A DNA stretch of 34,355 bases from a virus. Below the pieces are notes generated by a model. It did not search any database, was not told where the DNA came from, and saw nothing but the letters and a program-made list of their open reading frames with translations. Shown piece by piece: positions 2,794-14,472 of this stretch (the stretch's first letter is position 1; each line of letters begins with the position of its first letter). Where the stretch lies: UHGV virus genome UHGV-2160239. The stretch is one strand, 5' to 3'. The position numbers were made by a program, and so were the translations under genes.

Positions 2794-2885
2794 CGATACA
2801 AATAAAACATCAAATTAAATAAGAAAACGTGAAAACCATCCGTATTAACGGAGGTATTCGCACACGTAAATAACGGAGATATAAA

Positions 2886-3302
2886 ATGAACGCAAAAGAA
2901 AAAAATATTATCAATACATTAAAAATAGTGTCAGCAGAGCAAGACAAGCTGTCCAGGGCAGCCCAGAAAGATAATCAACATATGGTAGCGCTTTACGCAC
3001 TGACCATCGCAATAGCCACCTCTGAAGCAGCCAAAGTTATTGAGGAACAGAGCAAAGAAATCGACACTCTTAAAACACCGTCAACAGTTGCAACCATGAA
3101 TCCGTCCAGCATTGGACGCTGCATTTATATTCTTGGTTCAGCAATGATGCTGCAATACACCATTATTGCCGAACTGCACGGCAAATACCTGATAACGCCT
3201 TACCACACAAAAGAGTCAGAGCTTCTGACAAATCTCCGCCTGATAGAACGCTCTCAAGCTGTATTCATTGATGACGCGCAACGTGCCGTATTTAACGCAT
3301 AG
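2886..3302 (+). CDS. Hypothetical protein in AT-rich insert
   Basis: 138 aa ORF; GGAG RBS; local base composition visibly more AT-rich than flanking phage genes. Confidence 0.5.
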   Translation: MNAKEKNIINTLKIVSAEQDKLSRAAQKDNQHMVALYALTIAIATSEAAKVIEEQSKEIDTLKTPSTVATMNPSSIGRCIYILGSAMMLQYTIIAELHGKYLITPYHTKESELLTNLRLIERSQAVFIDDAQRAVFNA

Positions 3303-3330
3303 GGTTATTGGACAAAAAAAAGGGGGGGCA

Positions 3331-3534
3331 ATGGCAATTAAGCATTTTCCCGTCGTTCGCTTTACCTCCAGAGGGCGCGAATACGAGGTCGACGAACGCC
3401 TGATTACCACTATCGACAAACATCGTTCGGAAAAGGATGCACACCACATCTACCTCACTGACGGCACTTATTTCTGCGCCACTAATGTGGCGCGGGTAAA
3501 CCTTATCCGACAGGTACAGGAGCAGCGTAAATGA
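3331..3534 (+). CDS. Hypothetical small protein, first gene of coupled four-gene operon
   Basis: 67 aa from ATG 3331, preceded by an A8 G7 homopolymer that serves as the RBS; stop overlaps the next start (ATGA). Confidence 0.45.
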   Translation: MAIKHFPVVRFTSRGREYEVDERLITTIDKHRSEKDAHHIYLTDGTYFCATNVARVNLIRQVQEQRK

Positions 3535-3749
3535 ACAGAAGGCGAATCACACGCAGGCATCGCCGCACACACATGAATTCCTTACCGACGCTGAAAGAAC
3601 TCATTCAACACGAGATCGCTGATTTCTGCGCAACGCTGGGGTCGCCTGGCGAACCGGAAACACCAGAAGCGATGCAGCGCGAACTCATGATGCGCATCGA
3701 TAACGTTTTTGACTTTTTCCTGAATAACAAAAGAGAGCAATCAACATGA
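3531..3749 (+). CDS. Hypothetical small Arg-rich protein
   Basis: 72 aa; ATGA overlaps on both sides; alternative in-frame start at 3573. Confidence 0.45.
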   Translation: MNRRRITRRHRRTHMNSLPTLKELIQHEIADFCATLGSPGEPETPEAMQRELMMRIDNVFDFFLNNKREQST

Positions 3750-5374: not shown

Positions 5375-5446
5375 TTCCTGTTCCGGGCCTTTCCTGCACC
5401 TTGCGGCGGGAGGCCTTCGCACATCTGTACTTTGACGGAGTTTGTG

Positions 5447-7753
5447 ATGAGTACCTCTCACTCATACCCGTGGAACGCGCCGGACTGGGACGTGGCAACA
5501 GCAAACGGCATCACGCCCGACGCTGCCGTCTCTGCCGTGCATGAAACCACCGAAACCACAAGCAACACAGCATTCGCCTACCTGACACCGGACGGCGAAC
5601 GCCGCGTGCTGGATATGAGCGACCTCCGCGCAGTCTGCCGCGAGTATCAGAAGGGGCTTCTGGAGCGCGAACGACAGGAAATCATCCGCCGCCGGAAACA
5701 TGAGGAGTGGCTGCGTCGCCGTCTGGCCACGCTGCCTTCATTCATCCGCACCACCTTCTCCAGAAAACTGGAAAAGATGGACAGAGAAACGCCGGAACGC
5801 GCTTACCACTGGCTTTGCGGAACGTTCGAGAAGCACGTTCTGCGCCGCGTGGATGTGGTAAATGAACAGTACGAACCGCAGACACCGTGGCCCGACATGC
5901 TGCTCCCTTTGCGCGACGCGTTTCACCGCCTGCCGTGGGCGGACAGGAAGAAAATGCGCCACCTCGCCTGGTTGCTGGCCTCCGTCATGACATCGGAATT
6001 CACACGCCGGTTTGATGACCAGTACGCGCTCACGGGCGATCTGGAATCATCCGTGGTGGACGCATACGGCTATATTGCAAGCCGCGCGACTTTTCTGAAC
6101 ATCTTCATCCCCGGTTGGCGGCATTATCAGGGTGAAAGTCTGACACCGGATGATGCACTCCGCTGTGTTTCCCGCCTCCAGTCGCAGAAGTGGTGGCTGG
6201 GAAAAATCCGGCGAATCCACGAATGCTGGCGCGAACATCTGTTGATTGCCACGGGGCACGTGAGCAAATACGCAGGCGCAAAATGCTCTGACGAGTGTCT
6301 CGCATCGTGGCGTGCGCAACGCAAGGCAAACCTTGAATGGATGTCGGCAATGGACCTGGAAAACGAGGATACGGGCGAGCGTATGCCGCTGCTCGACAAG
6401 GTGCTGGGCAGCGTTGCTAACCCGAAAATAGCCCGTCATGAACTCACCGTTCGTGCGGCTGGCTTTCAGGCGACCGCTGACGAGATGGGTTACGTCGCCA
6501 TGTTTTACACACTGACCGCCCCTTCCTCGTATCACTCAATGCGCGTCAAAGACGGAAAACGGAACGACAAATACAACGGGGCCAGTCCGCGTGCCACGCA
6601 GAAATATCTCTGTAAGGTCTGGAGCCGCGTTCGCGCCGCGTGGCGGCGTAAAGGCATCCGCACCTTTGGCATTCGCACCGCTGAGCCTCACCACGACGGA
6701 ACGCCGCACTGGCATCTCGTTCTCTGGTTCCACCCGGACGACACCGAAGAGGCCACACGCATATTCCGGGAGTATGCGCTGGCGGAAGACGGTGGTGAGT
6801 CGGGTGCTGACAAGTACCGCTTTGAAGCGGTCGAAGAGGACAAAACGCGCGGCCGCGCAATTGGCTACATCGTCAAATACATCTCCAAAAACATCGATGG
6901 CTACGGGCTGGATGGCGAAGCCGACCGCGAAACAGGAAAATCCCTGAAAGACGAAGCGCGACGCGTCAGGGCATGGGCTTCGCGCTGGCGTATTCGTCAG
7001 TTCCAGCAGATTGGGGGCGCACCTGTTTCGGTCTGGCGTGAACTGCGCCGACTGGGGGGGTGTGAACTGGTACTGCATCCACAGATTGAAGGCATTCGCG
7101 CCGCAGCAGATGAGGGGGACTGGCAGGCGTACACCATGCTTCAGGGTGGGCCTTTTGTGGAGCGTTGCGAACTGGTGGTTCGTCTCGCCTATGACAGACA
7201 GGAGGATGCCAACGCCTACGGCGACACAGTTTGCAAAATTGCAGGAGTCCGCGACATGACAATGCCGCCGGAAGACATGATTTTCACTCGCCTTAACACT
7301 TACAAAATTGTGCCAAAAGTCAGCAAAAACAATGACAAAGAACAAACAGAAGGCCGCGACGCGGCCCCTTGGAGTTCTGTCAATAACTGTACGCACAGAC
7401 GAAGCAGTGGTGAGCATGAAGGCGAGCATTCCGACAAAACACCACCGGAATCACCGCCGGAAACGGTGAAAAAAGCGCCGGAATCACCATCACAGACAGA
7501 AGAAGATAGCGCCAGTCTTAACCAAATCATCGGGCCGCTGGAGCGACTCGGCTTTACCGTGTCCCGCCACCTCGCAAAATCCGTTCTTGCGGGTGGCGTA
7601 GTGCGCTCAACCGACGGTGTTGTCGCCCGCTGGGACACATCATGTAACAGACTGGTGGTCACGCGCGCGAACGCGTCGCCGTCGCTGGTTGTTTCGAAGG
7701 TTTCCGAATACACCAGACGACTGAAATGGGCGCTGGCACGGAGGTCGCTGTGA
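5447..7753 (+). CDS. A: Replication initiation endonuclease (P2 gpA-like, HUH rolling-circle)
   Basis: About 768 aa from ATG 5447 (GGAG 6 nt upstream); HUH-type metal motif in TPHWHLVLWF and catalytic tyrosine motif GYIVKYISKNIDGY; size and position match P2 gene A. Confidence 0.9.
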   Translation: MSTSHSYPWNAPDWDVATANGITPDAAVSAVHETTETTSNTAFAYLTPDGERRVLDMSDLRAVCREYQKGLLERERQEIIRRRKHEEWLRRRLATLPSFIRTTFSRKLEKMDRETPERAYHWLCGTFEKHVLRRVDVVNEQYEPQTPWPDMLLPLRDAFHRLPWADRKKMRHLAWLLASVMTSEFTRRFDDQYALTGDLESSVVDAYGYIASRATFLNIFIPGWRHYQGESLTPDDALRCVSRLQSQKWWLGKIRRIHECWREHLLIATGHVSKYAGAKCSDECLASWRAQRKANLEWMSAMDLENEDTGERMPLLDKVLGSVANPKIARHELTVRAAGFQATADEMGYVAMFYTLTAPSSYHSMRVKDGKRNDKYNGASPRATQKYLCKVWSRVRAAWRRKGIRTFGIRTAEPHHDGTPHWHLVLWFHPDDTEEATRIFREYALAEDGGESGADKYRFEAVEEDKTRGRAIGYIVKYISKNIDGYGLDGEADRETGKSLKDEARRVRAWASRWRIRQFQQIGGAPVSVWRELRRLGGCELVLHPQIEGIRAAADEGDWQAYTMLQGGPFVERCELVVRLAYDRQEDANAYGDTVCKIAGVRDMTMPPEDMIFTRLNTYKIVPKVSKNNDKEQTEGRDAAPWSSVNNCTHRRSSGEHEGEHSDKTPPESPPETVKKAPESPSQTEEDSASLNQIIGPLERLGFTVSRHLAKSVLAGGVVRSTDGVVARWDTSCNRLVVTRANASPSLVVSKVSEYTRRLKWALARRSL

Positions 7754-8205: not shown

Positions 8206-8261
8206 GGGGGCAACGAATGAAAAGAATTAACGCCAACACGAAGGCGAAAAAACAGACAGAA

Positions 8262-8354
8262 ACGGGATTCACAAATCCCGTAAATGAGCAAAAAACGCGC
8301 CGCGATATATGAAGCGCGCATAAAACAGGCAAAAACGGGATTTCAGAATCCCGT
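8262..8354. promoter_or_regulatory. parC-like centromere / promoter with paired palindromic repeats
   Basis: Two near-identical 20-bp palindromes, ACGGGATTCACAAATCCCGT (8262-8281) and ACGGGATTTCAGAATCCCGT (8335-8354), each ACGGGATT/AATCCCGT around a 4-bp core, directly upstream of parM. Confidence 0.5.
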
Positions 8355-8388
8355 AAACGATTAATTAATCAACATAAGGAAAAACGAC

Positions 8389-9348
8389 ATGAAAATTTGT
8401 ATCGACGACGGCTCCACCAACATCAAGCTGGCATGGACTGAGAACGGCGAACGCCGCAACGCCATCAGCCCGAACAGCTTCAAGTCGGAATGGTCTGCGC
8501 CGTTCGGTGGCACGCAGCCCGCGAACTACATGCTTGATGGCGTGCGCTATGGTTTTGATCCGGTTAGCGATCGCTTTGTCCAGACGACCGACACGCAATA
8601 CCAGTACAGCGATGTGAATGTCATTGCCATTCATCACGCGCTGGTCAAATCAGGCATCACACCACAGGAGGTGGATGTGGTTGTCACCCTTCCACTGAGC
8701 GAGTATTTCGACACAAACGCACAACCGGACATGGCCAACATCAACCGCAAAAAAGCGAACGTTATGCGCCCGGTGGAATACCAGAACGGCGAAGCATTCA
8801 CTATCCGCAACGTACGGGTTATGCCTGAATCCATTCCGGCTGGCTTTAAGGCACTGGCTGACATGAGTCCGTTTGAATCCCTGCTGATTGTGGATTTAGG
8901 CGGAACCACGCTGGATGTGGCAAAGGTTCAGGGACAACTGGCAGGTATCAGCCAGGTGTTTTGCGATCCACACGTAGGCGTTTCCCTGATAGCCGATGCC
9001 GTACTGTCGGTGATGGCCACTAACGGTATGCGTACCAGTCACCATATCGCCAATACCATCATCGAACATCGCCACGATGAAGTCTGGCTGCGCCAGCACA
9101 TCCACAATGACGCGCATTACGACAGCCTGATGGCGGTAATTCGTGAAAAGGAAGAAACACTGAAACAACGCGTGATCCGCGCGCTGGCGGGTTTTTCGGG
9201 TTACGGGCAGGTGATGGTTGTCGGTGGAGGGGCGGAGATTGTGGCACCCGCTATCCGCGAAGCCTGCGGAGTTAATGCGACTTTCATCGCGGACGGGGTG
9301 CCACAGTTTGCTCTGGTTAATGGGCTGTACGCAATGGACAAGGAGTAA
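8389..9348 (+). CDS. parM: Actin-like plasmid segregation ATPase ParM/StbA
   Basis: 319 aa; N-terminal IDDGSTNIKLAW phosphate-1 motif, YSDVNVIAIHHAL, VMPESIPAGF, LIVDLGGTTLDVA phosphate-2 and VMVVGGGAE adenosine motif, collinear with plasmid R1 ParM as I recall it. Confidence 0.9.
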   Translation: MKICIDDGSTNIKLAWTENGERRNAISPNSFKSEWSAPFGGTQPANYMLDGVRYGFDPVSDRFVQTTDTQYQYSDVNVIAIHHALVKSGITPQEVDVVVTLPLSEYFDTNAQPDMANINRKKANVMRPVEYQNGEAFTIRNVRVMPESIPAGFKALADMSPFESLLIVDLGGTTLDVAKVQGQLAGISQVFCDPHVGVSLIADAVLSVMATNGMRTSHHIANTIIEHRHDEVWLRQHIHNDAHYDSLMAVIREKEETLKQRVIRALAGFSGYGQVMVVGGGAEIVAPAIREACGVNATFIADGVPQFALVNGLYAMDKE

Positions 9349-9352
9349 ACCA

Positions 9353-9664
9353 ATGACGACTCCAACCAGACGGATAAGTTTCTATCTGAAGCCCGCCGTC
9401 GTCAAGAACGAAGGCGAAGCATGCGCCTGGCTGGACAGCCTTACACCAGAAGCCCGCAAAAGCGGCCAACGCGTGGCTTTTCTGGCCGGGCTGGCACTAC
9501 TGAAAATGAATCCGGCAGAGGCTTACCGACTGGCTGCATGGGCTGATGATGAGGCGTTATCAGTGACACAAATCAGGACAGAACGCCCCGCGTCACAGCC
9601 AGTATCAACCGCACAGATAACCAGTCAGATGGCCGGAAATATCCGGGCGTTATTTCCCGAATAA
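9353..9664 (+). CDS. parR: ParR-like centromere-binding adaptor
   Basis: 103 aa immediately after parM (AAGGAG RBS); RRISFYLKP ... LDSL ... AFLAGLALL parallels the R1 ParR N-terminal ribbon-helix-helix region RTIAFKLNP ... LDSI ... ALTAGLAL. Confidence 0.7.
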
Positions 9665-9726
9665 CACAACATCAGGGCGTATCCGCCCTGATGACTTTAA
9701 CCCGGGAGCATAAACAAGGGGACACA

Positions 9727-10062
9727 ATGCAACACATTGACAGAGAAAAAGCGCAGCGACTGATTGAGCGGATGGAAGCGCTGGCGAAAGAAGAAAATGT
9801 CAACATCCAAAAAATAGCTGAATGTGGACAGATAGTTCTTCGTCGTGAAAAAGACCTCAAACAACTGATGTTTGGCGAAACCAGTAAAACATGGACTTCA
9901 GGCGAGAAGACGGTTTATTGCAGTTTCTGCAATAAATCCCAGTACGAAGTCACAAAGGTGATTGCCGGACCGTCTGTTTACATCTGCAATGAGTGCGTGG
10001 ATTTGTTCAATGAAATTATCAGGAGAGAAGTGACAGGCCATGAAGAAAAAACGCATGAATGA
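9727..10062 (+). CDS. Standalone ClpX-type C4 zinc-finger domain protein
   Basis: 111 aa from ATG 9727 (AGGGG RBS); C-terminal [38 protein letters not shown] is collinear with the ClpX N-terminal zinc-binding domain (CxxC ... CxxC); N-terminal about 60 aa is a charged helical region. Confidence 0.7.
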
Positions 10063-10123
10063 CGAATTTGACGGTTTTTAATTTTATCGGGGCGCACTGT
10101 CCACCCCGCACGAGGAAAACACG

Positions 10124-10648
10124 ATGAAAAAATACGAATACATGCTGATGAAAGAAGCACTGCGGGTTGGTTTGGCTCCCTGTCCTGTATCCGTAGAAGC
10201 TGTTGTTGGGAACACGATTTTCCGAACGCTGCGAAATCGCGTATCCGTGAAAATGATTCACCAACCACCCAATTCTATCAGCATGATTTATCTGCCGCTG
10301 CCCGAGGCTATCAAACTTATGCGTTCGTTGAAATTTGCGATTTGGATGCAGACACAACTCAACAAAGCGGTGCAAAACACCTTCGTTAAGAAACTGATGC
10401 CGGAGCTTGCTGCCAGATGTGCAAAATGTACCAGACCCGCACTTCAATTTGATCTGTCATTGATTCAACAAGCTACGGAGGCAGAACTGTACCGCCTGTC
10501 ACCTCTCCGTGATGCTCACACGGAAGCCTCAGAAATGTTCCGGCTCATGTTTCAATTTAATTTTGCCGTTCGACGCACACGCGTTCAGGTCAATCGCATG
10601 ATGCAGGCGCAGGAAGAGCTGGCGCAACACAAAGGAGACAACCAGTGA
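10124..10648 (+). CDS. Hypothetical protein (174 aa), first gene of a coupled pair
   Basis: GAGGAAAA RBS; stop overlaps the GTG start of the next gene; no recognisable catalytic motif. Confidence 0.5.
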   Translation: MKKYEYMLMKEALRVGLAPCPVSVEAVVGNTIFRTLRNRVSVKMIHQPPNSISMIYLPLPEAIKLMRSLKFAIWMQTQLNKAVQNTFVKKLMPELAARCAKCTRPALQFDLSLIQQATEAELYRLSPLRDAHTEASEMFRLMFQFNFAVRRTRVQVNRMMQAQEELAQHKGDNQ

Positions 10649-11184
10649 GCAAGATTGACTATCAGGCACTACAAATGGCAGCAGAACGTGCAATTCCGGC
10701 AATGGAACGCCTGTTAATATTGCCAGTTGATGATGATTTGTTAAGCGAACAGGAACTTAAAGATTGCGGTGTGGATATTGACGCGATCAACACCTTCAGA
10801 CTTCTGGCTGGACCGGAAACCATGCTGGCACTGCTGGAACAACAGAAAGTCAAGGACAACCGAATCGCTGAACTGGAAAAAATCGTTACTGACTATGCAC
10901 TTAAATTCCAGAAAGCACAGGACGCATTAAAGTATGCCGCTTTGCTGCATAGCCGGACGGCGCAACAAACAAATAATTTTGCAGTATTGCTTCCGGACAT
11001 AAGCGAATATTTCATTAATGACGTATTTCAGCCCTTGCGATATGAGCGGGATGTTGAAAGAGCCATCATAAAGGCTGGCGGAAAAGCATTGTGGCAGGAG
11101 AAACAGGAGGACAGAACGCATCAGTCCTGCGATGTAAATCGCGGATGGTTTAGCCCACTGACGACAGATAAAAATAACACCTGA
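10645..11184 (+). CDS. Ead/Ea22-like family protein (tentative)
   Basis: 179 aa, GTG start with AAAGGAGA RBS; N-terminus MSKIDYQALQMAAERA and coiled-coil LALLEQQKVKDNRIAELEK resemble the lambdoid Ea22/Ead family as I recall it. Confidence 0.5.
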   Translation: MSKIDYQALQMAAERAIPAMERLLILPVDDDLLSEQELKDCGVDIDAINTFRLLAGPETMLALLEQQKVKDNRIAELEKIVTDYALKFQKAQDALKYAALLHSRTAQQTNNFAVLLPDISEYFINDVFQPLRYERDVERAIIKAGGKALWQEKQEDRTHQSCDVNRGWFSPLTTDKNNT

Positions 11185-11674: not shown

Positions 11675-12721
11675 TCAGGATGTGGGCTGGGTGTCCAGCA
11701 GTGCGTAAGGGTTAAAGCGGATCACCTCTTCGCCAAGCCAGTCATTGATATGCTTCATGGCCTCCATGACGGGCATCAGCTCGTTAATTGCGTAAACCCG
11801 CGCTGCCTTCTCCACATCACCAAACGCACTTTTTTCGCCCGGCATCGCCCCCATCAGTTGCGGCGGAACGCGGTGCGCAGCCAGCACATCATCACGGGAT
11901 GCCGCCTTAACATTCATGAACTCATCCTTTGCGGTGATCTGCTGGAACGGCAAAATTTGCACACCTTCTTTGCCCCCGTTGGGCGCGTGAATGAGCACGT
12001 TTTTAAATGCACCACCACCACGCGCACCCTGTAGCGTTTCCTTCAGGGAGTCCATGCTTTCGCGGTTTACCTGCGCTGCACCGATGTAGATGATGCACCC
12101 GGCGTGGGATCCATTGTCGTAGTACAGTTTTCTGAACATGTCCGCCGAATGAGACAGGCTGGCCGAGAGTAATGCGCCAAGATATTCCGGCATGCCGTAA
12201 ATTTCCTGGTTAATGTCCGGATTCATCAGGTGGCACACTTTGCCAGGGCGAAACTGAAACGCGTCGTTGCCATCCTGCACATACCACCATGATTCAAGAT
12301 CGCTTCCGCGCCGCATGTATTTCGCCAGTGCGTGCCGTAATTTAAGTGGTTCGCCGAGCATATTGCTCCGAAGCTCAAGGAATGCGTTACCGAACACAAA
12401 CCAGTCCAGCGCCAGCGCCGAGAAATCCTGCCGGGAAAGCAGCGGGTGCGGGATGTAGCAACCGAGTAATACATTGCGCTTAAAGTAAAGCGCAGACTGA
12501 TGCCAGGACGTTTGCCGGGCGGCTCTTGCCAGACCGTACCAGTCCACCGGGGTTTCATACCACCGCCCGTTATCAGCACAGTACATATTGTCCAGCAGGT
12601 CATGCCCGGTCAGGCGGTAAGGACCATCAAATGTGAATGCACTGAGCGACGATTCTTTCCTGAGCGCATCAGCGAGATCAATGCGTGAACTCATGCGCAC
12701 TTTTTTATTTTTTCTGCTCAT
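11675..12721 (-). CDS. Q: Portal protein (P2 gpQ-like)
   Basis: 348 aa; start overlaps the terminase stop; divergent from the capsid operon exactly as P2 Q-P; size matches gpQ. Confidence 0.85.
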   Translation of the reverse strand: MSRKNKKVRMSSRIDLADALRKESSLSAFTFDGPYRLTGHDLLDNMYCADNGRWYETPVDWYGLARAARQTSWHQSALYFKRNVLLGCYIPHPLLSRQDFSALALDWFVFGNAFLELRSNMLGEPLKLRHALAKYMRRGSDLESWWYVQDGNDAFQFRPGKVCHLMNPDINQEIYGMPEYLGALLSASLSHSADMFRKLYYDNGSHAGCIIYIGAAQVNRESMDSLKETLQGARGGGAFKNVLIHAPNGGKEGVQILPFQQITAKDEFMNVKAASRDDVLAAHRVPPQLMGAMPGEKSAFGDVEKAARVYAINELMPVMEAMKHINDWLGEEVIRFNPYALLDTQPTS

Positions 12722-14472
12722 CAGAACTCCATAACCGTGAAACGCTCGTTTTCTCCTTCGCCGCCAATTGGTTCGTTAATGACAGCAAGCATGGTTGCCC
12801 ACGCAAGGTCGCCGTGGCTGATCCCCCTCGCGCGGTCCGTTTCGTAAGTGATAAAGCCGCCCGGTGTTTTCACCTTACGCACGGCGTTAAAGGCCGCGAC
12901 CAGCTCGCGTTCGGCGCGATCGTATTCCCACCGCCCGGCACGCATTATTTGCAGCATTTTCAGTACCAGCGACCGTTTTGATGACAGCGTGAAGGTGTAC
13001 GGAATAGCAGCAGGGAAAAAACGTTTCACTATCTGATAAACAGCCTCCCCGTTCCCGCCCGTCACATCAATGCCGATGTGTTCCACGTTGTAGCGACACG
13101 TGAACTCCTCAATGACTCTGGCCTGTTCTTCAAACTCCAGCCCCTGAACGCGTCGCGTCTCCACCGTTCGAAAACGGCCACCAGGAACAGCCGGAGGAAC
13201 CACCACGGACACCGCGCCACTGTCGCCGTTTCCACTGCTGCCGTTTGCGTCATACCCAATCCATACCGGACGATTCCCCATCGGGCGGGGAGCAAAAGGT
13301 TTCCAGTCTTTCCAGTCGTCGTATCCGTCAACGCCGCAGCCAATCAGGATATTCAGGTTAAATGCCGATTCCCCTTCGCGGACAAACTCACACATATAGA
13401 GATTGCGGAACTCGTCTTCGGTGTTTTCATCACGAATTTCATCAATATCGGTGTGTTTCCAGCCGTGATTAACCACATCTTCCAGCGTGACAATTTGCCG
13501 CCACGTCCGGTCGGGGCAGATAAGCCCGTTATGCAGCGTTTTCCAGTCCACAGAAAAACGCTGGCGTTTATGCGCGGCCTTTTTCTCGTTCCAGCGGTCG
13601 CCGTTCCAGTAGACGTATGCCTCGTGCGTTTCGGTTGATGGCGTGGAGAAGTAGGTGCGTCGCAGCCCGCTGAGGGTTGCCATAGCGCCAGCCACCTTGC
13701 GCAGTTCAGCAAAGCGACTGACCCAGAAAAATTCATCAAAATAAAAATTGCCTGTGTAGGACTGTGCCGTCGCAGCAGAAGTGCCGAGAAAATGCAGCTC
13801 TGCGCCGTTGGAGAGGATGATTTTATCGCCCCCTTTCAGCTCCACATCAACTTCAGATGCAGCCTTCTGAATAATGCTTTTAAACTGGAACGCCTGACGA
13901 CGCGACGCAGACAAAAAAATCTGGTTACGCTGGTAAGGTTGCGCCACATCGTCACGCAGCGCCATCAGCAGTGCTTCCTGTGCAAAATACCAGGTCGCCC
14001 CAATCTGTCGGGATTTCAGGATCATCCTGTTACGTATCCCGGCTTCCCTGCAAAGGGTCAGGGAGTCAAACCAGCCCCGCTGATGCCACTCCAGCCTGCT
14101 GATGATTTTTTCCCGCAGTGCGGCAATCTGTTCCGGCGTGAAATGATTTTTAAGCTTTTTCGCCCGGCCTTTCTTTCCTGTGGCCGTCGCATCCGGCTGG
14201 TCATCATGCAGTTTTTTAAGCTGCCGGGTCAGCAGGTCTATTTCCTTAAAGTCACCGCCTGTTTTATTCTGTTTTTCAGTAAGCTGGATGAGGCGCGCAT
14301 CGATGGACTGCGTGACACGCTGCACGGGTGGCGTTTCATCCCACTGGTCGCGTTTTTTCCACGCATAAATCGTGTTCGGGTTTATTCCCATCAGACGTGA
14401 TATTTCAGCGGGCGGATAACCCTGCCAGTAAAGTTGTCGCGCACGCTGGCGCACAAAAGCGTCCTGAATCAT
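12721..14472 (-). CDS. P: Terminase large (ATPase) subunit (P2 gpP-like)
   Basis: 583 aa; N-terminal HTH-like segment YWQGYPPAEISRLMGINPNTIYAWKKR, then ATPase and nuclease regions; size and position as P2 P. Confidence 0.9.
   Translation of the reverse strand: MIQDAFVRQRARQLYWQGYPPAEISRLMGINPNTIYAWKKRDQWDETPPVQRVTQSIDARLIQLTEKQNKTGGDFKEIDLLTRQLKKLHDDQPDATATGKKGRAKKLKNHFTPEQIAALREKIISRLEWHQRGWFDSLTLCREAGIRNRMILKSRQIGATWYFAQEALLMALRDDVAQPYQRNQIFLSASRRQAFQFKSIIQKAASEVDVELKGGDKIILSNGAELHFLGTSAATAQSYTGNFYFDEFFWVSRFAELRKVAGAMATLSGLRRTYFSTPSTETHEAYVYWNGDRWNEKKAAHKRQRFSVDWKTLHNGLICPDRTWRQIVTLEDVVNHGWKHTDIDEIRDENTEDEFRNLYMCEFVREGESAFNLNILIGCGVDGYDDWKDWKPFAPRPMGNRPVWIGYDANGSSGNGDSGAVSVVVPPAVPGGRFRTVETRRVQGLEFEEQARVIEEFTCRYNVEHIGIDVTGGNGEAVYQIVKRFFPAAIPYTFTLSSKRSLVLKMLQIMRAGRWEYDRAERELVAAFNAVRKVKTPGGFITYETDRARGISHGDLAWATMLAVINEPIGGEGENERFTVMEF

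Follow-up and report, generated by a model that had tools for sequence, protein, structure and literature searches.

ClpXP governs the stability of sigma-S, of SOS proteins, of antitoxins and of several phage replication and transposition proteins, and Mu-like phages need ClpX. The zinc-binding domain (ZBD) of ClpX is a docking platform for SspB and RssB, and its deletion abolishes the RssB-dependent degradation of sigma-S and leaves ssrA-tagged substrates unaffected (PMC7226468). [quoted passage not shown] Degradation of lambda O also requires the ZBD, in which F16 and I46 form a hydrophobic pocket, the binding site of trigger factor, lambda O, SspB and RssB, and in the ClpX hexamer the ZBDs are paired to give a trimer of dimers (PMC7804408).

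Here we describe a hairpin-linker-ZBD family, newly recognized in temperate phages of Escherichia and Salmonella, from a member encoded in the virus genome UHGV-2160239, whose 34,355 nucleotides are the whole stretch of DNA that was analyzed (the window below; all coordinates are whole-window positions). Our literature searches found no characterization of phage ClpX-ZBD proteins, or of stand-alone or tandem ones.

A ClpX-type Zinc-binding Domain Joined to a Predicted Helical Hairpin

The gene, its ribosome-binding site and the parts of its product lie in the window as follows.

9716..9721, plus strand: Shine-Dalgarno sequence AAGGGG, 5 nt before the ATG (read from the sequence)
9727..10062, plus strand: coding sequence of the 111-residue hairpin-linker-ZBD protein (ORF listing; PHROG 6797 family; homologue of P88 gp19 and D6 orf93)
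9742..9870, plus strand: two-helix hairpin, residues 6-22 and 27-48 (AlphaFold2, pLDDT 73-87)
9871..9909, plus strand: flexible linker of residues 49-61, more variable than the other parts (pLDDT below 50 at residues 53-59)
9910..10035, plus strand: ClpX-type ZBD, residues 62-103 (Pfam, PDB sequence search, Foldseek)
9919..9930, plus strand: first CxxC, C65/C68, equivalent to ClpX C14/C17 (alignment to 1OVX/2DS5)
9925-9927, plus strand: F67, equivalent to ClpX F16 of the adaptor/substrate pocket (alignment to ClpX)
9985..9996, plus strand: second CxxC, C87/C90, equivalent to ClpX C36/C39 (alignment to ClpX)
10006..10017, plus strand: segment of the C-terminal helix with F94 (equivalent to ClpX C43) and I97 (equivalent to ClpX I46) (family alignment)

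The original prediction had placed the gene at 9727-10062, and these coordinates proved exact, with an ATG at 9727 and a TGA at 10060-10062 bounding a plus-strand frame for 111 residues in the ORF listing. Another in-frame ATG lies 5' of this one at 9691; because it falls within a strong stem-loop, and because all homologues of the 111-residue protein have MQHIDREK as their N terminus, we take 9727 to be the true start. Although minus-strand ORFs overlap the region, it is the plus strand on which the domain and family matches fall and the reading frame is conserved and intact. The exact 111-residue protein is already recorded in public collections. Database names for such proteins are "ClpX C4-type zinc finger protein" and, often, "carboxylate--amine ligase", the second of which appears to be a propagated misannotation, without support in any domain search.

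The assignment of the ZBD is far above chance. Pfam PF06689 (zf-C4_ClpX) matches residues 64-99 over profile positions 2-38 of 39 with an E value of 1.2e-17 (64 bits, the cut-off being 27), and in a phmmer search of the PDB the best sequence matches for the 111-residue protein were entries of the E. coli ClpX ZBD (1OVX and 2DS5-2DS8; E = 4e-18 to 1e-17 over residues 53/58-103). Of 40 core residues, 30 are identical to E. coli ClpX (~75%), both CxxC pairs have the ClpX spacing, and the four cysteines are invariant across the family alignment. A ClpX ZBD with both CxxC pairs, as originally claimed, is thus what these searches recovered. The claim had equated the domain with the C-terminal 45 residues; the collinearity stands and the exact extent does not, the ZBD covering residues ~62-103 and being followed by a variable tail of 8 residues. 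AlphaFold2 gave residues 61-100 a pLDDT of ~91 and predicted the fold of the ClpX domain, with beta-hairpins and a C-terminal helix. In Foldseek, ZBD crystal structures rank first (rmsd 0.5-0.8 Å, 75% identity, TM-target 0.88-0.92); the top set of 2DS5/2DS6/2DS7/2DS8/1OVX spans 0.5-1.8 Å, with 2DS5, 2DS6 and 2DS8 at 0.7-0.8 Å. Structure prediction and alignment, which had been suggested as a check, therefore bear out the fold.

The further claim that the protein lacks an AAA+ module was upheld by the NCBIfam ClpX equivalogs NF003745 and TIGR00382, which reach 47 and 46 bits where 359 and 371 are required and match in model positions 3-50 only, and by the length of the protein, 111 residues versus ~420 in ClpX. 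Among Pfam hits at E ≤ 0.01 there was no match to the Ogr/Delta late activator (PF04606); a separate Ogr/Delta gene occurs in related loci.

The pocket residues are kept: among 11 diverse family members C65, S66, F67 and C68 are invariant and the position of I97 holds I or V, and the equivalent of ClpX I47 is nearly invariant in the phage family. Some substitutions distinguish individual alleles. The window carries C94F at 10006-10008, a position that is Cys in almost all relatives and Phe in no other copy examined, and that lies one helix turn from the pocket residue corresponding to I46. It also carries S49F at 9871-9873, which is rare in the family and common only to the window and its nearest relative, and other alleles carry Y85C (ClpX Y34).

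The N-terminal hairpin, absent from the original prediction, is conserved and of no recognized family. In an alignment of eleven diverse relatives E17, E23 and R40 are invariant or nearly so, and the N-terminal 58 residues alone match PHROG 6797 with an E value of 6.7e-26, yet the hairpin alone returned nothing noteworthy from Pfam at E ≤ 10. A kinship with the neighboring Ead/Ea22-like protein was considered and set aside, the match being not significant (E = 0.078). Both helices bear heptad-like double hydrophobic stripes, a pattern that, on the predicted model, would let a dimer pack as a four-helix bundle. The linker that follows differs in length by up to 11 residues among relatives, with G50 invariant, and the same hairpin-linker-ZBD architecture is predicted in a distant Salmonella relative whose hairpin is only 22% identical (P0018).

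Distribution, Selection and Origin of the Family

The protein matches PHROG 6797, listed as function unknown, over its full length (E = 1.4e-55; residues 1-105 align with positions 5-106 of the 107 in the profile). Phages P88 and PhiR44_2 carry genes 92-94% identical to that of the window, and close copies (87-99% identical) are found in 40 IMG/VR contigs, all 40 as intact ORFs. By blastn, 271 of 5,426 complete E. coli genomes contain a DNA match, at 225 chromosomal places and 62 on plasmids. A second subfamily, ~48% identical, occurs in the P1-like phage D6 (orf93) and in non-mobilizable phage-plasmids of ~90-114 kb such as p09EL50, where copies follow an ead/Ea22-like gene inside a long co-oriented gene block. 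This D6-type subfamily is also present in a P88-like prophage, in the exact slot of the window gene and with the same downstream genes, so that the window and D6 types behave as alleles. More distant members, with hairpins ~20% identical, lie between gene A and the portal gene of other P2-like Salmonella phages that are without parM-stbB. The named sources are solely E. coli, E. albertii and Salmonella. When genome contigs were searched with a profile of the family alignment, the matches listed were chromosomal clpX genes of beta- and gamma-proteobacteria.

Related domains are widespread beyond this family. In a search of 1.8 billion proteins, ~10,400 representatives match at E ≤ 0.001, and numerous among the top metagenomic matches are proteins with two to four (or more) ClpX-type ZBDs in tandem and no AAA+ module (P0030, P0031, P0034, P0040, P0063, P0065 and P0066 are examples). 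The Pseudomonas lambdoid phages PP9W2 and BUCT566 encode a bare, diverged ZBD of 65 residues (at 2495-2692 of locus L141 and 2492-2689 of locus L142), the gene for which lies directly after a DksA/TraR-type zinc-finger gene and O/DnaB-like replication genes, in a nin-like region; these proteins probably represent an independent capture of the same domain. In one P2-like IMG/VR contig (L046) a distant hairpin-ZBD homologue in the A-to-portal slot is adjoined, divergently, by a gene for a Fic/Doc-family toxin (E = 2.7e-11) and one for a weakly Phd/YefM-like antitoxin, together at 2825-3630 of that contig. Since Phd of P1 is a ClpXP substrate, this juxtaposition could be significant, or it could be incidental.

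Estimated over 22 distinct alleles, pN/pS comes to 0.29 in the hairpin, 0.32 in the ZBD and 0.73 in the linker; values of ~0.3 at such low divergence offer modest evidence of purifying selection. Compared without gaps, the ZBD is 70-88% identical to that of E. coli ClpX in nine of ten members (P0127 is the exception, a one-residue insertion spoiling the count), while hairpin identity falls to 20-22%. The ZBDs of the window and L046 are 60% identical to one another and 75% identical, each, to ClpX. In nucleotide sequence the ZBD and E. coli clpX agree at 66% of positions; of the 30 codons for residues that the two have in common, 12 are the same, and blastn of the ZBD gene on the 5,426 E. coli genomes gave no clpX match. 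A recent capture from host clpX is rejected by this DNA identity and by the lack of a clpX match; rather, the few shared codons alongside a protein identity of 70-88% indicate that the capture is old and that the likeness to ClpX has been kept by selection on the protein. The ZBD of ClpX itself is identical between E. coli and Pseudomonas at 39 of 40 positions, and since the phage ZBD has 10 changes among 40 residues of so nearly invariant a domain, its constraints would be related to those of ClpX and not identical to them. The single difference in 40 between the two ClpX domains also means that a matching of phage ZBDs to their hosts cannot discriminate.

Swappable Cargo between Replication Gene A and the Portal

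Around the ZBD gene the window has the following features.

to 1023, minus strand: integrase (prophage gene match; a repressor is also present)
5432-7753, plus strand: P2-type replication gene A (PHROG 91 "nicking at origin", 1e-230)
8389-9348, plus strand: parM (Pfam StbA_N/ParM, 1.8e-82)
9353-9664, plus strand: stbB/parR-like gene (Pfam Plasmid_stab_B, 3.4e-24)
9670..9693, unstranded: GC-rich stem-loop of 10 bp, separating stbB from the ZBD gene (terminator-like scan)
9694..11184, plus strand: low-GC cargo of the ZBD gene, a 174-residue ORF and an Ead/Ea22-like gene (43-49% GC versus 52-60% in the flanks)
10124-10648, plus strand: orphan ORF of 174 residues, within the low-GC cargo
10645-11184, plus strand: Ead/Ea22-like gene (Pfam Ead_Ea22, 4.7e-18)
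11675-12721, minus strand: P2-type portal gene (PHROG 68 portal, 4e-153)
12721-14472, minus strand: P2-type large terminase gene (PHROG terminase, 1e-160)

Capsid scaffold and major head genes come after the terminase gene, and the tail fiber, tape-measure and sheath genes that were checked also match, so that by gene content the window is, in essence, an entire P88-type prophage of the P2-like group (Peduoviridae, Xuanwuvirus). P2 has its tin and old genes in this interval between gene A and the portal gene, which is a recognized hotspot of accessory and defense genes. Homology to relatives that have parM-stbB alone ends at ~9667, relatives with different cargo retain 9665-9751, and in other P88-like prophages an unrelated gene of 135 residues replaces the ZBD gene, with the junction ~25 nt into the coding sequence. 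The drop in GC content, the stop in homology and this replacement lead us, from comparison of the loci, to regard the ZBD gene as swappable cargo. It is also dispensable, being replaced in relatives, frameshifted in E. coli ET358 and recorded in truncated forms, and it decays in some lysogens: the closest chromosomal copy (positions 6064-6398 of locus L004, from ET358) is 98.7% identical in DNA and annotated as frameshifted, and the truncated family forms have 61-96 residues.

Pfam, NCBIfam, PHROGs and PADLOC all returned nothing for the 174-residue ORF, which occurs together with the Ead/Ea22-like gene in seven examined loci. At E ≤ 0.01 PADLOC-DB gave no defense match for the ZBD protein, the 174-residue ORF, the Ead/Ea22-like protein, ParM, StbB or the flanking ORFs. 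The stem-loop at 9670-9693 is a perfect CATCAGGGCG-TATC-CGCCCTGATG without a U-tract on the plus strand; its position is that of the left-hand cargo boundary, and it is kept in relatives with other cargo. The RNA fold of 9650-9740 has a free energy of -29.6 kcal/mol (z = -5.7), and a simple scan showed no sigma-70 promoter directly 5' of the ZBD gene.

A complete partition module of the actin type (ParM/StbB, 8389-9664), of the kind found on plasmids, thus resides in an integrase-bearing P2-like prophage, and many P88-like phages share it, so that one may ask whether these phages exist for a time in plasmid form. Just 5' of parM, at 8249-8360, lie two 39-nt direct repeats 73 nt apart, each containing the palindrome ACGGGATT-N4-AATCCCGT; this arrangement resembles a parC-type centromere or an StbB operator, and the terminator scan flagged the repeats on the minus strand.

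In all P2-like contexts the ZBD gene occupies the interval between replication gene A and the portal gene, and it runs in the direction of gene A and of the gene block after it. No conserved phage partner gene was found for it, neighbors varying among the loci examined, and a conserved downstream partner was rejected since the genes compared are unrelated (174 residues in the window, 112 in P88 and 173 in p09EL50). This variability of the neighbors and the lack of a conserved partner point to a host target.

A Possible Decoy of the ClpX N-domain

By analogy with the isolated domain, we propose that the phage protein imitates the ClpX N-domain as a decoy and competes for the adaptors and substrates that depend on that domain, a reading to which we give somewhat less than an even chance. 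It is mechanistically credible because an isolated ZBD in trans blocks RssB-dependent degradation of sigma-S. The protein would be made from the rightward gene block after replication gene A and, as a free mimic of the N-domain, would probably dimerize through its ZBD like the host domain, the hairpin possibly reinforcing the dimer by packing into a four-helix bundle. It would then present the hydrophobic pocket of ClpX that docks SspB, RssB, and lambda-O-like and MuA-like substrates, and the candidate beneficiaries would be a phage replication or regulatory protein, sigma-S or an antitoxin, or else the gain would lie in denying ClpX to a competing phage. The dimerization, the binding of ligands, competition in vivo, the timing of expression and the protein that benefits from being stabilized are all steps that we infer.

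Titration of adaptors or heterodimerization with ClpX, the two actions first suggested for the protein, would fit the conservation of the pocket, the closeness of the ZBD to that of ClpX, the 40 intact copies and the lack of a phage partner. The ZBD-only proteins that Pseudomonas lambdoid phages seem to have acquired independently, encoded after O/DnaB genes, likewise speak for a decoy. Against it, as aligned, the C94F change of the window allele adjoins the pocket and 10 of 40 ZBD residues are changed relative to a nearly invariant ClpX domain; the gene, moreover, is dispensable, and a simple decoy needs no conserved hairpin, which a bare decoy model leaves unexplained. Conservation of the hairpin therefore suggests something more than a bare decoy, perhaps an oligomerization that raises avidity or a second binding function. 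Dimeric SspB, for its part, tethers bivalently. The position of the gene gives a weak hint of early expression, perhaps for protection of a replication protein, and the link is weak because the same places simply house cargo in such phages.

Taken more broadly, motor-less copies of the ClpX docking domain in temperate phages of enterobacteria and, independently, of Pseudomonas may be specificity-selective antagonists of ClpXP, a tentative proposal that we think could well prove wrong. Mimicry of the platform would reprogram which host and phage proteins ClpXP degrades, with the conserved hairpin raising avidity or adding a second target; possible outcomes are that replication initiators or regulators are protected, that sigma-S or antitoxins are stabilized, or that ClpX is denied to Mu-like competitors.

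Other Explanations

The conserved hairpin is also the starting point for an alternative in which the protein is directed at ClpX itself, its ZBD pairing with a ClpX ZBD or docking on the ring and so planting the hairpin on the unfoldase, where it would block or poison the N-domain or serve as an adaptor platform for degradation or remodeling. Conservation of E17, E23, R40 and G50 together with the low pN/pS of the hairpin asks for a role other than that of a decoy, the core and helix residues of the ZBD are so host-like as to be compatible with mixed dimers, and the flexible linker of variable length resembles a tether. However, host ZBDs are already paired in the hexamer, which may make exchange unfavorable, no candidate cargo lies nearby among the varying neighbors, and the hairpin matches no adaptor or anti-adaptor family. 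We consider a modifier of this kind unlikely.

We also regard as improbable that the ZBD has been reused as a zinc-stabilized module for dimerization or protein binding, with the hairpin aimed at a target outside ClpXP, for example in replication, recombination or regulation. The fold is widely reused, since many of the top matches bear one to five ZBD-like stretches on short proteins or proteins not of ClpX length; the Pseudomonas phage versions are merely ~50-55% identical to ClpX, and the 10 differences in 40 residues from the nearly invariant host domain point the same way. What the enterobacterial family has kept, in contrast, goes beyond the needs of a fold, namely F16, I46/I47 and most surface positions, and its members are often nearer to ClpX than to each other, as the window and L046 are.

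That the protein serves the neighboring ParM/StbB partition system as an accessory subunit, as parM-stbB directly upstream and in the same orientation in 42 of 46 loci examined might suggest, is very improbable and largely refuted by distribution, because many P88-like phages have parM-stbB without the ZBD gene, Salmonella and other P2-like relatives have the ZBD gene without parM-stbB, the copies of D6 and of ~109-kb phage-plasmids follow ead/Ea22-like genes instead, and the GC drop and homology break fall exactly between stbB and the ZBD gene. We give equally little credence to a decaying, functionless fragment of a captured clpX, for which the frameshifted chromosomal copy and the truncated forms could be cited and which is contradicted by the intact state of all 40 viral copies, pN/pS of ~0.3, a good Shine-Dalgarno sequence, a hairpin-plus-ZBD architecture kept even where hairpins are ~20% identical, and high synonymous divergence from clpX with the protein conserved.

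Implications

Were the decoy reading true, it would describe a new viral way to tune a host protease, by mimicking its docking site and not by blocking its active site or its adaptor, and it would provide a ready genetic tool to separate N-domain-dependent from direct degradation by ClpXP in vivo. Since the family is common, being found in 271 of 5,426 E. coli genomes and on phage-plasmids, it could conceivably affect the stress responses of clinical lysogens of E. coli and Salmonella. If the protein is unrelated to ClpXP, its gene simply joins the other small accessory genes of an already known cargo slot.

Comparison with Known Systems

The closest described counterpart of the phage domain is the ZBD of E. 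coli ClpX, with which it shares the Pfam domain, 75% of 40 residues, the four Cys ligands, the F16/I46 pocket and the fold. Unlike in ClpX, it is motor-less, follows a helical hairpin instead of occupying the N terminus, and carries 10 substitutions in 40 residues. Motor-less and free, the protein is like the recombinant isolated ZBD used as a competitor, which is a direct laboratory analogue of the proposed mechanism (PMC7226468); the phage protein, however, is natural, diverged and equipped with an extra domain, whereas the laboratory construct has the host sequence.

The small anti-adaptors IraD, IraM and IraP stabilize a ClpXP substrate by hindering delivery by the adaptor and not the protease itself (PMC7226468). 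If the analogy holds, the outcome expected of the phage protein, stabilization of sigma-S, could be similar; the Ira proteins bind RssB with unrelated folds, whereas the phage protein would mimic the ClpX docking site. No anti-adaptor or phage protease-inhibitor family was among the Pfam hits, either for the whole protein at E ≤ 0.01 or for the hairpin at E ≤ 10.

PinA of T4 and gp4.5 of T7 inhibit Lon, and CIII of lambda inhibits FtsH. A phage ZBD decoy would be like them as a small phage protein that blunts a host ATP-dependent protease; the proteases differ, and to our knowledge none of PinA, gp4.5 and CIII copies a domain of its target.

Among phage proteins, PHROG 6797, P88 gp19 and D6 orf93 define the family of which the window protein is a full-length member, and this family has a domain label only. 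The 65-residue proteins of PP9W2 and BUCT566 are similar in being motor-less ZBDs of temperate phages, encoded in an early region by replication genes; they differ in having no hairpin, and they are identical to the window ZBD at 17 of 40 positions and to ClpX at 20-22 of 40. Judged by its sequence, then, the window protein is not ClpX, and it is not a known anti-adaptor, phage protease inhibitor or defense protein. Phage interference with host AAA+ proteases is already known; to achieve it by copying a docking domain would be new.
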